Assembly: GCA_048886185.1 (NCBI GenBank)
Contig: JBHLKY010000006.1
Coordinates: 60,001-92,000 of the forward strand
Direction of reading: 5' to 3'
Source of the DNA: Candidatus Hermodarchaeota archaeon
GTDB taxonomy: Archaea > Asgardarchaeota > Heimdallarchaeia > Hodarchaeales > Hodarchaeaceae
DNA: 32,000 nt
The first letter of the stretch is position 1, and the number at the start of each line of letters is the position of its first letter. This document shows positions 4,729 through 9,975 of the stretch, piece after piece. The notes beneath the pieces are model-generated. The model was not told the origin of the DNA and did no database searches. It saw only the letters and a program-made list of their open reading frames with translations. The translations under genes were made by a program, and so were the position numbers.

Positions 4729-5139
4729 TTAATATAGCAAGACATTCTCCTGACTATCAGAGGAATCTCTCGCTGTTGACGTGTCATTTTTTGACTTGAG
4801 AATCCGAATGATATCGTTTCGTGTAAGAAGGAAGATCCGAATACGATCAGCTAAGGACCGTGCGGGATCAGAGAAGACATTCGTGATGATGAGCATTTTA
4901 GACAGAAGACGAGTGTTCTTCATTATCTTTTCAGCCCGAATCACAATATCCACACCGACAGCTCGTTTCCAGTCCTTTATAATGACCCCAATTCCCTCAT
5001 TTTCTTGACCATTTTGAATAACGAAATGAACCTCGTTGTCTCGAAAATGGCTGACATCTTTATCGACAACTAATCCACGTTGACGACAATACTCGAGCGT
5101 GAGCTCTTCTAATTCAAGTAATTCATAATTAATCTTCAT
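4729..5139 (-). CDS. Mrr-like restriction-endonuclease-fold protein, catalytic residues apparently degenerate
   Basis: Start reassigned to ATG 5139, which overlaps the upstream stop and follows an AAGGGG RBS. The pattern EVHFVI...IIKDWKRAVGVDIV...ITNVFSDPARSLADRIRIFLL resembles Mrr_cat, with H at the expected Asp and I at the expected Glu/Gln. Confidence 0.7.
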   Translation of the reverse strand: MKINYELLELEELTLEYCRQRGLVVDKDVSHFRDNEVHFVIQNGQENEGIGVIIKDWKRAVGVDIVIRAEKIMKNTRLLSKMLIITNVFSDPARSLADRIRIFLLTRNDIIRILKSKNDTSTARDSSDSQENVLLY

Positions 5140-6259
5140 GATAAATCCCCTTAAAGGTGATACGAGCATCCACAGAGAACGATGTCTCAAACGCAAGATG
5201 CTCTAAAATACCAAAAATAGCTTTATTAGGCCGATAAGCTTTTTCACGTTTATCACGATCAGTTGATTGTTCATAAATTAACGTACCACTCAACAAATCT
5301 CCTAAGTGGTGACTGATCGTACTTTTAGTTTTATTCATTAACCGAGTCAATTCTTTATGAATAATATACTGCCGCCTCTCAAAAGGAAGCGACTCATTCT
5401 GAACCTCTCTCACGAGGATCTCACGGAGGATGGGAATTTTACTCGGAGAGAAATTGTTCAGCACCTCAGGATCAATACCAAAGGTAAAACGAAAATCAAC
5501 AAAACTAAGAGAAGAATTTAAGGAGAAAAAATCCTCCAAAATGCTAATGGCGACACCAGGATTCCCAAAGGTAATAGAGGCAATGTTAGAAACAGTATTA
5601 GCAGGAATATACGGGATAGTTTGTTCACGATAGCAGACACGGAGGCGACGGTTCAGAAGGTTAGTGATCTCAATATGATTGAAATGAGGCATGGAGAGAA
5701 AATGTTGATAGGAAGTGTCCCCTTGTTGAATACAGAGACGACGATAGATCTCAAATTCGGTACTATCCATAATAGCAATGATTTTAGGGGAAAGAGGGGG
5801 AAAGGGAGAGTTTACCGTGAGGAGTCTGCGGAGAGTTTTATGAAGCAAAAAGGCATCATCCAGAAAGATAACATCCGCAGAACTCCAATCGATTGGGGGA
5901 TCTGAACCAGTCGTTTCCTTAAAAAAAGTGGAGGCGTCTTGATAGACAGCAGAAATGTTTAATTTCTGACTATACGCCTCAAAAATACGAGCAAAAATGG
6001 TTTTGCCCGTTCCACGAGGGCCCTTAAGAATTAACAGATCATAGGAAGATTCTTCAATAAATTCGACAATCTTGATAATGAGATCTTTGTACTGCTGATT
6101 CTCATCGCCATAAAAAGCATGAGGATCGTGGAGAGGGAGAAGAGGATCACAAGGATCATAACGGTATCCCAATTCCTGTAATCGCTTCTTTTGTTTGATG
6201 TCACGATCAGCATTTTCAAAGAGGGAATCGAGAGGATCATCGAGGGGGTGGCTACTCAT
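5129..6259 (-). CDS. AAA+ (ExeA/STAND- or Cdc6-like) ATPase with C-terminal ArsR-like winged helix
   Basis: N-terminal LGYRYDPC, Walker A GPRGTGKT, Walker B VIFLDD, lid ITFGNPGVAI, wHTH HKELTRLMNKTKSTISHHLGDL...DKREKAY. Confidence 0.85.
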   Translation of the reverse strand: MSSHPLDDPLDSLFENADRDIKQKKRLQELGYRYDPCDPLLPLHDPHAFYGDENQQYKDLIIKIVEFIEESSYDLLILKGPRGTGKTIFARIFEAYSQKLNISAVYQDASTFFKETTGSDPPIDWSSADVIFLDDAFLLHKTLRRLLTVNSPFPPLSPKIIAIMDSTEFEIYRRLCIQQGDTSYQHFLSMPHFNHIEITNLLNRRLRVCYREQTIPYIPANTVSNIASITFGNPGVAISILEDFFSLNSSLSFVDFRFTFGIDPEVLNNFSPSKIPILREILVREVQNESLPFERRQYIIHKELTRLMNKTKSTISHHLGDLLSGTLIYEQSTDRDKREKAYRPNKAIFGILEHLAFETSFSVDARITFKGIYHED

Positions 6260-7584
6260 GGAGACTCCCTCCGAGCAAAGAGAATGGACGAGGCTTCAAT
6301 ACTATAACGACGATGGGTTAACCGCTGATAAACAGTAATAATTTCTAATGCACTGGCAATTTGAGAATCCCACTCAACACAAAAAATTTTTGACCGAGCA
6401 TCATGAACATCATCAATTGTTGCTAGAATAGGGACAGGTTGAGAGGTAGTGAGTGGTTTGAGATGATAATTCATTGTTGAAAGGTTAACCCCTAAGTCTT
6501 TCGCAAGATCAGAGCTACGTAGGCCATCCACACCAGTATTAGGAAAGAAAAAGCGTTCCCGTAGATGATGACTAAGCATTAAAGCAATGATTTCTCGACG
6601 CTTTGGCGTGAGAATACTAATGGGTTCCTCATCAACGTCAGTATCCATAGATTCAACCAGCCGAACTGCTTCCTCATAACCCAATTCTTCTATTACTGGA
6701 GTAATGACATTCACGGTCGCTTTATCAGTGTCAAGAACAATTAATTCGTGTAAACAATCCGAAGCCAGCTTTAACGCAACAGATGGGATCCCAAGACTAT
6801 AATCAGCAATTAATTCAAGAGCTTTATCAGTAAAGAGGCTAGTAGGAGTCCGAGCAACTTTAAGGCGTTGATTTACGAGTTTGATGATTTCATTCTTGGA
6901 AAAAACCGGGAAGAAGAAATGTTTGGGATTAAAATAAGAAAGAAAGACCCGAGAAAGCATTAGATGTTCTTCTTCCAACAGAACGGTTAAGGTCAGACTG
7001 TTAACAAATCCAATGAGGATGACTCCATGCTGGGCTTGAGACTCAATATCAGAAATAAAATCCCGAATCTGGGGAATAGCTGCAGTTCCAGTGATAGTAT
7101 AATCTAAACTGTTAATAAAAATGATGAGAGGCTTTTCAATAAATTTTATTTGGGAGAGGAAACTTTCATAGGTCTCGAGGGTTTTGGAAGAAGAGCCAAA
7201 GGGCTCGAGAAATTCAGGTAATTCGCGCCAAGTAGCCAAATCAACATAAAGAGTTTCAAAATCTTGAAAACCGATTTGTTTCCACTCTCTATCGAAGTGT
7301 CTAGCTAAGGAAGATTTACCACAACCACGTAAGCCATGAGCGAGTACATGACGAAAGGGAGTTTGAGGATCTTGTTCAAACAAACGAGTGGCATCACCAA
7401 TACGCAAAGCAAAGTTGTATAAGACATCCTCGCGTTCGATGAGAAAATCAGGATTGTAAGGATCGGGGTCAGAGCGGAAAGGATCATGAGAAAAGCCGAA
7501 ACGTTCAAAGGGGGATTCCCTAATGAGCTCTCCAGAACGACCAGCTTTTAACGCCTCACGAAGGCGATCAGCTAACTTAGTCAT
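6256..7584 (-). CDS. AAA+ ATPase-like paralogue with C-terminal winged helix, degenerate Walker B
   Basis: FERFGFSHDPF, Walker A GLRGCGKS, Walker B LIIFINS (no Asp-Glu), lid FTDKALELIADYSLGIPS, wHTH SSDLAKDLGVNLSTMNYHLKPL...DARSKIF; ATGA overlap with the next gene. Confidence 0.85.
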   Translation of the reverse strand: MTKLADRLREALKAGRSGELIRESPFERFGFSHDPFRSDPDPYNPDFLIEREDVLYNFALRIGDATRLFEQDPQTPFRHVLAHGLRGCGKSSLARHFDREWKQIGFQDFETLYVDLATWRELPEFLEPFGSSSKTLETYESFLSQIKFIEKPLIIFINSLDYTITGTAAIPQIRDFISDIESQAQHGVILIGFVNSLTLTVLLEEEHLMLSRVFLSYFNPKHFFFPVFSKNEIIKLVNQRLKVARTPTSLFTDKALELIADYSLGIPSVALKLASDCLHELIVLDTDKATVNVITPVIEELGYEEAVRLVESMDTDVDEEPISILTPKRREIIALMLSHHLRERFFFPNTGVDGLRSSDLAKDLGVNLSTMNYHLKPLTTSQPVPILATIDDVHDARSKIFCVEWDSQIASALEIITVYQRLTHRRYSIEASSILFARRESP

Positions 7585-7622
7585 ACGATCAAGTCACACT
7601 CGACAGAGATAAATCGCGAAAC

Positions 7623-7641
7623 CTCGATGTTTATAATCGAG
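7623..7641. promoter_or_regulatory. Palindrome CTCGAT-N7-ATCGAG enclosing a TATA-like box upstream of the AAA operon
   Basis: Perfect 6-bp inverted repeat with spacer GTTTATA, 39-57 bp upstream of ATG 7584. Confidence 0.4.
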
Positions 7642-7672
7642 AGGAATGCTTTAATAGCAAATCAAAGGTGAA

Positions 7673-7724
7673 AGGACAAGGACACATAGAGAGGAGGACT
7701 CACGACACCCCGAGGACAGGGACA
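7673..7724 (+). repeat. Direct repeat AGGACA(A/G)GGACA, two copies 40 bp apart, in a purine-rich tract
   Basis: AGGACAAGGACA at 7673-7684 and AGGACAGGGACA at 7713-7724. Confidence 0.5.
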
Positions 7725-8616
7725 GGGGAGGCATGAGTATCATGCAGGAATGACAGTCGAATCAAATCGAACTAATCGAACCATCATATAAGAAGCTTTC
7801 TCAAACTACTTTCCTTTATATATATATAATTATTTTATAATGAGAAAGTGAAGCTAATATGATCATGATAACTTCATGAAATAGCCATCGAATTAATTTC
7901 TAGGGTACTACCTAGGAGCTTCACTTACTTCAAATGCCAGCCTCACTGCTTATCGTTGTTATTCTCTTCCTGTGACAACTTCCCTATTCACTTCATGAAC
8001 ACGTACAGATCCTCTCCAAAACTTGGAGACGTTTCCACGATTCTAGGGATTCCTTTTTCCTCCTGGTTCTCGTTTACTTCCATATGTATCGTTAAATTCT
8101 CTTCTATCACAAAGATATTCCTTAAAATCATTTAGAAACTTACATTCTGCCATATCAATCGCACTCTTTATTAATAAGAGAATAGGCTCTCTTTGAAGAA
8201 ATCATGTTTAATTCTGATCTCCCAAAGGTTCGAGAACTCCAACAAACTTCAGCTTTTATATACATGTATTATTTCTAAGAATCAATTTAGATTTAGATTC
8301 TACAAGTTCATATAATTAAGTCTAAAATAGTAATCTTTATTTTCCTCGGTTATCAATATACCTATTTTTCGGAGAGTACTAGGATTAATACTGACAATAT
8401 CTATCTTGGTGGCAGTCTTGGTGACGTATAACTCGTTCTAAGTCTGTGGATCGCTTATTTCCAGAAATTATTTATACAAAATGGTTTATCAAAAAGTGTC
8501 GTCTCTCCGATTTTCACGGATTTCTGAGTTCCAAGTATTTATAGATTTCCTTACTGGCAGCTCCTATTGCCTGATCACATATCTATAAAAAATATCTGAT
8601 TGAACCAAGACCCATC

Positions 8617-9975
8617 ATGTTGATCAATAAGATTTTAGGGACTCAAGAATTACCGTCTCAAGCTCAATACTACATGCGAGTATTTTTGTATCTTAGCATG
8701 ATAATCTCCTTTTTAGGGAGTTTATCCAGTACCTTTTACGTTCTCTTTAGTATTGATCATATTGGGTTTGCCCTTACCGCTGTCTGTACTAGTATCATGT
8801 TAGCAACCCAATTACTGTTTGATTATCCTTCTGGTGCATTAGGGGATTGGATTGGCCAACGCTGGGTCTTAGCGATCGCGTTTATTTTTTATGGTATCTC
8901 TTTTCTTTTTCTAATGTCGGCTCAAACGATGTCTGATTTTACAATAATTGCAGTGATTAATGGATTTGGGAATGCTCAATCATCTGGTACCTTTGCTACG
9001 TGGGTAGATAACAATTATCGTGTTGCAGTCGGTAATGCTGATCCTGACAGGAAGATTTATGGTTTTTCAACATCTCGTGTTAATTCTCTTAACAATTTTG
9101 CACTAGCAGCCTCATTTTTGATAGGAGGAACACTAGCTACACTTATTTCTCGTCGAATTGTCTTTTCCCTACAATTTGGATTAACAATCATCATTGTTTT
9201 CCTCGTTCTCTTGTATTTAAAAAACATCAAAATGGACAATCACATCCAAGTGGAGTCTTTCGAGGAAAATTCATTAAATCTTTCCAATTATTTCAAATAT
9301 TTAAAAGGGGGTGTTCAATTTCTCTTCTCCAGTAAGGCAGCTTTCCTCTTTCTCTTTGGAAATGCCATTTTTAATGTCACTTGGATGATTTGGGGTGGAT
9401 TGGTGTTATTTCCGTTATACTTTGGCTATACTGGCACCGATGCCCTTGCTGGTTTACTCCGTACCACCCTTTTTCTAGCTGGTATCCCGCTTTCATTTTA
9501 TATCGCGCATATAAACAAGCGAATTTCGAATGATAGACTCCCCATTTTTCTTTTCCTAAGTGCAATTTCATTTTTCCCTTCTTTTATACTTTTAACTCTC
9601 TTTATGCCTCCTACAAATGAATTTAATGTGTTAGGAATTGTTCTGACATTTATTCTCCTCTGGACAATTGTTGGTACAACTTTCAATATTGCTCAAACAT
9701 TAATCCAACGTATCATGATTGACTTTGTCCCATCTGAATACCGAAATTCTGTTTATTCCTTGATGCCAACCATTTTTTCCCTTATTGGTATCCCTGTGGT
9801 TCCCATGGCTGGAATTGTTATTGAAAATCATGGTTTGTCTGCAGGAATCTTTACTGCTGGCATTGTATGTATTATCGGGTCGTTATTAATCTCTTTTAGT
9901 GTCCATCTCATATATAGACAGCAAACTAAAGCAATCGAGCGCCAGGTGACTGATATTCAAGTAATCGCTCGCTAA
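8617..9975 (+). CDS. MFS transporter
   Basis: About 12 hydrophobic segments; MFS motif A-like FDYPSGALGDWIGQRW; QRIMIDFVPSEYRNSVYSL. Confidence 0.92.
   Translation: MLINKILGTQELPSQAQYYMRVFLYLSMIISFLGSLSSTFYVLFSIDHIGFALTAVCTSIMLATQLLFDYPSGALGDWIGQRWVLAIAFIFYGISFLFLMSAQTMSDFTIIAVINGFGNAQSSGTFATWVDNNYRVAVGNADPDRKIYGFSTSRVNSLNNFALAASFLIGGTLATLISRRIVFSLQFGLTIIIVFLVLLYLKNIKMDNHIQVESFEENSLNLSNYFKYLKGGVQFLFSSKAAFLFLFGNAIFNVTWMIWGGLVLFPLYFGYTGTDALAGLLRTTLFLAGIPLSFYIAHINKRISNDRLPIFLFLSAISFFPSFILLTLFMPPTNEFNVLGIVLTFILLWTIVGTTFNIAQTLIQRIMIDFVPSEYRNSVYSLMPTIFSLIGIPVVPMAGIVIENHGLSAGIFTAGIVCIIGSLLISFSVHLIYRQQTKAIERQVTDIQVIAR

Follow-up and report, generated by a model that had tools for sequence, protein, structure and literature searches.

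The DNA analysed here (the window) is a stretch of 32,000 nucleotides from a Candidatus Hermodarchaeota archaeon (contig JBHLKY010000006.1, positions 60,001–92,000 of the forward strand). Its positions 4729–7584 are occupied by three open reading frames (ORFs), all on the minus strand, which are called A, B and C below. The three genes and the region upstream of them are as follows.

6256..7584, minus strand: gene A, 442 amino acids; AAA+ domain, helical lid and ArsR/MarR-like winged helix, with an N-terminal FGFxxDPF motif. Walker A GCGKS; Walker B IFINSLD (N158); lid GIPS; invariant recognition helix NLSTMNYHLKPL.
5129..6259, minus strand: gene B, 376 amino acids; full-length paralogue of A, absent in five related genomes. 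Walker A GTGKT; Walker B IFLDDAF; lid GNPG; recognition helix KTKSTISHHLGDL.
4729..5139, minus strand: gene C, 136 amino acids; small Mrr_cat-fold protein in which the KDWKR motif is kept, with H38 and I53 at the acid positions.
7585..8616, no strand assigned: intergenic region upstream of A, 1032 nucleotides, without an ORF of at least 60 amino acids, an Rfam match or origin recognition box (ORB)-like repeats.

The stop codon of A and the start codon of B overlap by 4 nucleotides (ATGA, 6256–6259), and B and C overlap by 11 nucleotides (5129–5139). These overlaps had been read in the initial annotation and agree with the ORF coordinates; comparable coupling was found in three other assemblies, with a 4-nucleotide overlap or a 2-nucleotide gap between A and B and an overlap of 8–11 nucleotides between B and C. 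The ORF of C itself runs from 5196 to 4729, and the protein is taken as 136 amino acids from the ATG at 5139 because orthologues use this ATG. The window contains no tRNA genes, and an Rfam scan of the window and of the intergenic region 7585..8616 gave no match. Overall, the initial observation of a coupled three-gene operon, encoding two AAA+-winged-helix paralogues and an Mrr-fold protein without its acids, was confirmed.

The A and B families are paralogues along their whole length (hhalign probability 98%, E 1.3e-13, 339 aligned columns). The N-terminal (F/L)G(F/Y)xxDP motif that had been claimed for both proteins was recovered in the family alignments as G-[FLY]-x-x-[DN]-P-[FC], with the Gly and the Pro invariant or nearly so in the A family, the B family and the wider family to which they belong. 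The Pfam and NCBIfam matches of A were below threshold (AAA_16, 20.6 bits; AAA, 18.5 bits; TIGR02928 for orc1/cdc6, 25.7 bits against a cut-off of 181.3), as were those of B (HTH_5, 16.4 bits; nSTAND_NTPase5, 14.4 bits; the MsvR winged helix, 31.9 against 220; TIGR02928, 10.7 against 181.3; TIGR00635 for RuvB, 11.2 against 299). The STAND models of Pfam (NACHT, nSTAND3 and nSTAND_NTPase5) gave 13.4–14.4 bits against cut-offs of 26.7–34 and were not passed, and the Pfam models of the Cdc6 lid and the Cdc6 winged helix had no match in A or B. Sequence-profile searches of the PDB returned weak P-loop or helix-turn-helix (HTH) matches only for A and B, and none for C.

The fold of B could be assessed from an AlphaFold model of good quality (pLDDT 80.8, pTM 0.83), which has the AAA+ domain, the lid and the C-terminal winged helix in one chain. 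The top solved neighbours were archaeal Orc1/Cdc6 proteins (2qby_A, Z 13.6; 1w5s_A, Z 12.4; 1w5t_A, Foldseek E 3.9e-8), followed by eukaryotic Cdc6 and Orc1, the archaeal Walker-type ATPase 2qen (PAB2304, Z 12.3), RuvB and NB-ARC resistosomes; AVAST5 was also among the fold neighbours. The alignments to 2qby_A, 1w5s_A and 2qen_A covered 273–291 residues (Z 12.3–13.6; Foldseek E 4e-8 to 2e-7), and the C-terminal domain superposes on MarR/ArsR regulators (rmsd 1.7–2.9). The model of A is weaker, and its leading fold matches were the same as those of B. In the ESM Atlas both proteins were nearest an unnamed archaeal cluster of 410 amino acids, then Orc1/Cdc6 and ExeA clusters. Both chains end after the winged helix, without C-terminal sensor repeats or a fused effector domain.

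Orc1/Cdc6 proteins, structurally the closest matches of A and B, resemble them in domain build (AAA+, lid and C-terminal winged helix), in a length of about 370–440 amino acids, in the occurrence of paralogous pairs and in a gene linked to likely DNA sites (e.g. Orc1-1/Orc1-3 on origin DNA, PDB 2qby). A and B differ in falling far below the cut-off of the family hidden Markov model (HMM), in having a winged helix of the ArsR/MarR rather than the Cdc6 type, and in lacking a DE Walker B, a sensor-2 Arg and, as judged from ORB-like repeats and GC skew, origin features; moreover, the genome contains four true Orc1/Cdc6 genes, found with TIGR02928 on other contigs at 178–439 bits in a search in which A scored 22.8. 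ExeA proteins have an N-terminal hGhxxxPF motif before the P-loop, as do A and B. Clusters of these ExeA/GspA-like AAA_22 ATPases (COG3267) are among the Atlas structural neighbours, and some distant family members are labelled 'ExeA' by JGI, but the Pfam model AAA_22 (PF13401) does not match A or B, and ExeA carries peptidoglycan-binding or SPOR parts instead of an ArsR-like winged helix. The archaeal 'Walker-type ATPases' PAB2304 and SSO1545 (PDB 2qen and 2fna; ATPase_2) are likewise AAA+-plus-winged-helix proteins and match B over the whole length of the structure (Z 12.3 and 10.4), from which A and B differ in having no match to Pfam ATPase_2. We know of no report on the function of PAB2304 or SSO1545.

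The motifs of the ATPase site were counted in columns of the family alignments, comprising 24 A orthologues and 25 B orthologues. No member of either family deviates from the Gly-Lys of Walker A. Of the 24 A proteins, 21 have the Walker B Asp, as do all 25 B proteins; the window's copy of A (N158) and its two closest relatives have Asn. The position of the catalytic Glu is never Glu (D, N, S or V in the A family; N, R, K, D or S in the B family), and hhhhDE as Walker B was found in neither. As initially described, both families lack the sensor-2 Arg of the lid, which reads GIP-[T/S/I/A] in A and GNPG in B, where the Gly at the sensor-2 position is invariant. The GxP of the helical domain is fully conserved in A (G265-x-P267), and in B G232 is invariant and P234 is found in 22 of 25 sequences. 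Candidate arginine fingers are R212 in A (21/24) and R174 in B (25/25). The recognition helices of the winged helix are invariant within the A family and within the B family, and the motif (S/T)T-x-(S/N)-Y/H-H is common to A, B and distant relatives. The B family also has four near-invariant cysteines, C34 and C37 (in a CDPCDP motif), C176 and C209, which may serve in metal binding or redox chemistry; in the window's copy the first of these positions is a Tyr (Y34).

In the initial annotation the 442-residue protein was called a pseudo-ATPase from its IFINS sequence. The motif IFINSLD is indeed that of the window's A, but it is not a trait of the family, and judged from the alignment columns the pseudo-ATPase state of A is confined to the window's own sub-lineage. 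Because Walker A is kept and the catalytic Glu and sensor-2 Arg are missing, A and B would be nucleotide-binding switches of the Orc/STAND kind, most likely slow switches rather than motors. STAND NTPases (NB-ARC, NACHT and AVAST) share with A and B the NTPase domain, the GxP helical domain, the winged helix, a DD-type Walker B and the lack of a sensor-2 Arg; by analogy, the combination of GxP and DD-type Walker B without sensor-2 Arg suggests switch-like behaviour in A and B. The likeness extends to an associated non-catalytic restriction endonuclease (REase) fold, which in STAND forms is an N-terminal NA-iREase1 and here is the separate downstream gene C. A and B are unlike STAND proteins in that the Pfam STAND matches are below the cut-offs, in that a sensor-repeat or effector domain is missing, and in that they form a vertically inherited, single-copy chromosomal unit (see below).

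Protein C passed the Pfam model Mrr_cat (PF04471) with 45.6 bits (cut-off 21), residues 8–113 being aligned to profile positions 7–114 of 115; NA-iREase1 (PF22722) was not passed (12.7 bits, cut-off 27). The K-x-W...VG and TT/TN-x-FS...A...A segments are shared with E. coli Mrr, a type IV restriction enzyme from which C differs by its size of 136 amino acids, without an N-terminal DNA-recognition domain, and by the residues at the active site. In an alignment anchored on W...VG and the TT-x-FS...A...A segment, K221 of E. coli Mrr pairs with the invariant K55 of C, and Q219, the Gln of QxK, pairs with the hydrophobic I53 (I, V, L, M or T in relatives). The Asp of the GID motif of Mrr pairs with H38 in the window's C; this position is variable in orthologues: 21 of 30 relatives have D, and the rest N, S, Q or T. 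The initial description of C as an Mrr-like fold without catalytic acids therefore holds for the window's copy, in which the Lys (K55) is retained; since the HMM alignment of C to Mrr is weak (1.7 bits), this mapping of catalytic residues is a putative one. As the C family allows N, H, S, Q or T at the metal-binding Asp, dependence on catalysis is unlikely, and C is probably non-catalytic. The conserved basic residues K55, K58, R59 and R68 would fit DNA binding.

The Atlas neighbours of C comprise archaeal Mrr_cat proteins of small size as well as bacterial families, the latter often with NA-iREase1 (to be taken as a lead only), and one bacterial cluster near C fuses Mrr_cat to a RuvB_N-type AAA+ domain. 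Rpb5-N, to which the initial annotation had suggested comparing C, was not supported as kin: Pfam gave no match to it at E values up to 1, and none of the Atlas neighbours was a cluster of this kind. The window's own genome (G000) has three more small Mrr_cat paralogues of C, of 124–144 amino acids and with a (K/R)DW(K/A)R motif, two of which are in tandem; they lie at G000:C5:120955-121389 and G000:C26:24319-25360, and none adjoins an AAA+ gene. Small Mrr_cat proteins like C are widespread across Asgard genomes.

The region upstream of A contains three features that bear on the function of the operon.

7784..7791, minus strand: TATA-like box TTATATGA, read from the sequence, directly upstream of the array.
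7755..7781, minus strand: distal repeat array, TTCGAT (7780–7775), TTCGAT (7771–7766) and TTCGAC (7761–7756); candidate operator.
7623..7641, minus strand: proximal palindrome CTCGAT-N7-ATCGAG, enclosing a second TATA-like sequence, TTATAAA; about 40–57 nucleotides upstream of the ATG.

The repeats of the distal array are spaced by 9 and 10 nucleotides and lie 172–196 nucleotides upstream of the ATG of A; the core TCGAT is common to the array and the proximal palindrome, and a TTCGAT is present at −56 in the related loci L004, L014 and L015. The degenerate triple pattern had no match in 100 shuffles of the window, and the triple array occurs once in the 4.84-Mb genome, where about 0.1 occurrences were estimated by chance. 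In orthologous loci the array was again found upstream of A and beside a TATA-like box (16 of the 19 loci match a strict pattern, and the remaining three have a degenerate form), at a distance of −172 to −230 where the start of A was mapped, and the lineages with only A and C carry the array too. An array of the same kind, composed of TTCGAA, precedes a tandem pair of AAA+-winged-helix genes in another Asgard family (loci L025–L027); in L025 it has four units, three of them at a 9-bp period. The proteins of this family are 17–20% identical to A and B, and the operon there is without a C gene. Unrelated comparison loci had no such array, save one match inside a gene, and in relatives the pattern is rare, with 1–3 places per genome where present and none in G065. 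One loose triple TCGA-repeat match was seen at G063:C178:4263-4291, in a genome without an A match or a C orthologue, and may be due to chance or mark a remnant locus.

Because the array is co-inherited with the genes and the recognition helices are invariant, it is most likely that A and B recognise both the TTCGAT array and the proximal TCGAT palindrome. The position of the array, between the TATA box and the expected start of transcription, would suit an archaeal operator. The DNA-binding, regulatory or switch role proposed at the outset gains support from the conservation of this upstream array. Between the array and the start codon lies a putative leader (7660–7745, minus strand), which is pyrimidine-rich (CCTCCCCTGTCCCTGTCC...) and holds an upstream ORF of 31 codons; a CT-rich stretch likewise follows the array in G074. 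In another locus (L003:4324-4719) the long region upstream of the operon contains a 131-residue TnpB/Cas12f1-like fragment (Pfam Cas12f1-like_TNB). A sigma-70 promoter scan was set aside as not meaningful for an archaeon.

In principle, the repeats could also serve as iterons, whether of a secondary origin, of a partition site or of what is left of an integrated replicon, A and B then being an initiator-like or site-marking system in parallel to the linkage of orc1/cdc6 to oriC. The closest solved folds, which include the Orc1-1/Orc1-3 heterodimer on origin DNA, are in keeping with such a role, as are the co-inheritance of gene and candidate binding array across Asgard families, the single occurrence of the array in the genome and the long upstream intergenic region, in which an AT-rich stretch adjoins the array. 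However, the TIGR02928 scores of A and B are a small fraction of the cut-off, the Cdc6 lid and winged-helix models do not match, the four canonical Orc1/Cdc6 genes lie elsewhere, and the ATPase sites are degenerate. Furthermore, the upstream region has no ORB-like repeats, in inverted clusters or otherwise, the GC skew shows no turn on the 233-kb contig, and the array stands directly after the TATA-like box, a placement expected of an operator. We consider this explanation decidedly improbable, and the initiator-like part of the initial interpretation gained no support. Still less probable is a variant in which the locus would encode, instead of a simple autoregulator, a heteromeric, ATP-bound complex in the style of ORC that marks one unique site of the chromosome, be it a secondary origin, a partition site or a site of chromatin organisation. 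Two ORC-like proteins of ancient duplication, with degenerate ATP sites, would then act through the co-inherited array together with a dead nuclease-fold subunit. According to a 2025 survey of the Asgard replisome, ORC2-5 were gained in the last eukaryotic common ancestor, and the passages of this survey that were consulted make no mention of the A, B and C genes (PMC12680538).

The distribution of the operon was surveyed in 400 Asgard genomes, the window's own genome being counted among the 21 nearest. All close homologues of A, B and C belong to metagenome-assembled genomes that bear the label Hodarchaeales, Heimdallarchaeota or Promethearchaeota. Strong matches to A were found in 18 of the 21 nearest genomes; G063, G065 and G077 are without A and without a C orthologue, and in G059 a C orthologue was present at the start of a contig, but no A was found. 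The window's genome has one copy each of A and B, and the C orthologues are 55–77% identical. The gene order, the start-stop coupling and the neighbours (the helicase-nuclease Hef, a gene of 235 codons, PAC2, a gene of 169 codons and a RING protein) recur across assemblies, Hef being the neighbour in three of them. No integrase or other defence genes were found near the operon in the window or in the compared assemblies. The single copy, the synteny and the shared neighbours point to vertical inheritance and not to a defence island, and on these comparisons A-B-C is specific to one lineage, the Hodarchaeales-type Asgard archaea, in whose chromosomes the operon is passed on vertically. In the window the PAC2/RING block is at 10.6–15.1 kb, and the operon is inverted relative to this block when compared with the other assemblies; a gene for an MFS-type transporter (8617–9975) lies between the operon and the block of 235-aa, PAC2, 169-aa and RING genes.

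The three genes are not equally constant. In five of the 18 A-bearing genomes (G057, G058, G061, G062 and G064), A and C are adjacent, 76–106 nucleotides apart, and B is nowhere in the genome. B is therefore dispensable, and the obligate A-B hetero-oligomer that had been envisaged is unsupported. A prediction of the A+B+C complex with C as partner gave a score of 0.00 in a run without controls, which speaks neither for nor against a complex. In the tree of A, four of the five genomes without B form a clade (100/100) nested among the three-gene lineages, and a sister family of the same order has two AAA+-winged-helix genes, with a C-like gene adjacent in G078. Given this nesting and the two-gene pair in the sister family, loss of B is the simplest reading. 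A and C are the constant core of the operon, and B is an accessory paralogue.

With a broader profile of the AAA+-winged-helix family, the number of representative clusters was 53 at an E-value limit of 1e-30 and 1272 at 1e-10. The named members belong to Hodarchaeota, Wukongarchaeota, Hermodarchaeota and Odinarchaeota and are labelled hypothetical, ExeA, ArsR or RuvB; no Pfam family covers the members of this wider family. One distant relative (L032) passes AAA_22 (38.7 bits, cut-off 27), one weakly matches ATPase_2 (19.2 against 33.2), and one lies in a run of three genes of 408–474 amino acids that are possible paralogues. The gene contexts vary, and some members adjoin HerA-NurA and OLD-TOPRIM genes: in L042 and L043, distant relatives of 360 amino acids head runs of genes for HerA (DUF87), NurA and OLD-like TOPRIM proteins, settings that may be mobile or defence contexts.

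These contexts bear on the possibility that the operon is a defence or conflict module, active or domesticated, in which a STAND-like NTPase sensor (A and B) with an REase-fold partner (C) would sense foreign or modified DNA under autoregulation, as in many immune or toxin-antitoxin operons. The weak Pfam matches to nSTAND3, nSTAND_NTPase5 and NACHT, the GxP lid without sensor-2 Arg and the DD-type Walker B fit this explanation, as does the presence of NB-ARC resistosomes and AVAST5 among the fold neighbours. The frequent NA-iREase1 among the Atlas neighbours of C, the bacterial fusion of Mrr_cat to a RuvB_N-type AAA+ domain and the HerA-NurA and OLD-TOPRIM genes beside some distant relatives point in the same direction, and the sole strong DNA site is the operon's own promoter. 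Against this, none of the families of PADLOC was matched: in PADLOC-DB 2.0, C had no match and A and B only gave fragments of winged helix or P-loop, with CARF-HTH or PDC models at E 2.5e-6 to 0.03, so that the check with PADLOC, advised at the outset, led to no characterised system, and neither did the family models. The operon is also strongly conserved in sequence, and 18 of the 21 nearest genomes have it, as a single copy at one syntenic site; integrases and other defence genes are missing nearby, and C, without catalytic acids, has no evident effector activity. We therefore hold a defence role to be unlikely, and a domesticated defence module, as proposed initially, conflicts with the single-copy, syntenic and vertical inheritance.

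The neighbouring Hef gene and the size of C, which is about that of Hjc, could be taken to indicate a module for DNA repair or junction processing, in which a RuvB-like ATPase pair would act with an Hjc-sized nuclease-fold protein replacing the Hjc missing from the order. Both in fold and in sequence, RuvB ranks with the nearest neighbours of the ATPases. Pfam Hjc had no match in the window's own genome (96% complete) and was missing in all 23 genomes of the order-level group (families f1 and f2) within the Asgard survey, whereas 45 of the 47 genomes from four sister families in the same class (f3, f4, f5 and f7) have it. This contrast between Hjc and the operon is, however, a single evolutionary event, many other Asgard families without the operon are also without Hjc, and small C-like Mrr proteins coexist with Hjc in the sister families. 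At the profile level C as a diverged Hjc (PF01870) was rejected (hhalign probability of 0.1% with the Asgard Hjc profile), C lacks the acidic catalytic residues, and the RuvB model TIGR00635 remained at the 11.2 bits given above, where 299 are needed. This is the least probable of the explanations considered here.

Of the initial interpretation, there remains a conserved, undescribed operon for AAA+-winged-helix proteins whose ATPase sites are degenerate and for an Mrr-fold protein that is likely to be non-catalytic; the obligate heteromer and the initiator gained no support, and the defence system conflicts with the pattern of inheritance. The explanation that we favour, at about even chances, is that of a DNA-binding module that regulates its own expression and is switched by nucleotide, with an Mrr-fold partner that is not catalytic. 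A, and B where present, would be minimal Orc1/Cdc6-like, STAND-like P-loop proteins consisting of an NTPase domain, a GxP helical lid and an ArsR-type winged helix. They would keep the ability to bind nucleotide (Walker A, and the Walker B Asp in most members), without the catalytic Glu or the sensor-2 Arg. The invariant recognition helices would bind the TTCGAT array and the proximal TCGAT palindrome at the operon's own promoter, and nucleotide-dependent oligomerisation along the sites spaced by 9–10 bp would set the expression of the operon and thereby constitute autoregulation. C would be a catalytically degenerate Mrr-fold partner, produced in step with A and B, and would probably supply a second DNA-binding or DNA-sensing surface. 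The structure of the genes, the paralogy of A and B, the class of fold, the degenerate motifs, the vertical conservation and the conserved array that is single in its genome are directly observed; the binding of A and B to the array, the switch behaviour and any physical complex are inferred. A precedent is the non-initiator Orc1/Cdc6 paralogue Orc1-2 of Sulfolobus, which acts as a transcription regulator (PMC6061795).

Several observations weigh against this explanation. The AlphaFold model of A is of low confidence (pLDDT 62.7), and the alignment of C to Mrr is weak, as noted. Double TTCGAW repeats occur at 17 sites in the genome, which is about the number expected by chance, and mostly inside genes, so that no further convincing site emerged; with its own promoter as the only target, the module would be a regulator without an obvious output. 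The array could also be bound by another factor or be plain core-promoter sequence.

Literature searches found no description of an A-B-C operon. Origin recognition, the loading of clamps and helicases, and STAND signalling are all based on AAA+-plus-winged-helix proteins, and the operon is a compact, conserved and uncharacterised branch of this class in Hodarchaeales, a group central to ideas on the origin of eukaryotes. Hodarchaeales is the order often placed closest to eukaryotes. The array, unique in its own genome, offers a ready DNA target, and the three-gene and two-gene forms provide a natural comparison. A-B-C may equally prove to be an ordinary autoregulated regulator; the system could, on the other hand, show how hydrolysis-poor paralogous ATPases and an inactivated nuclease fold work in DNA recognition.

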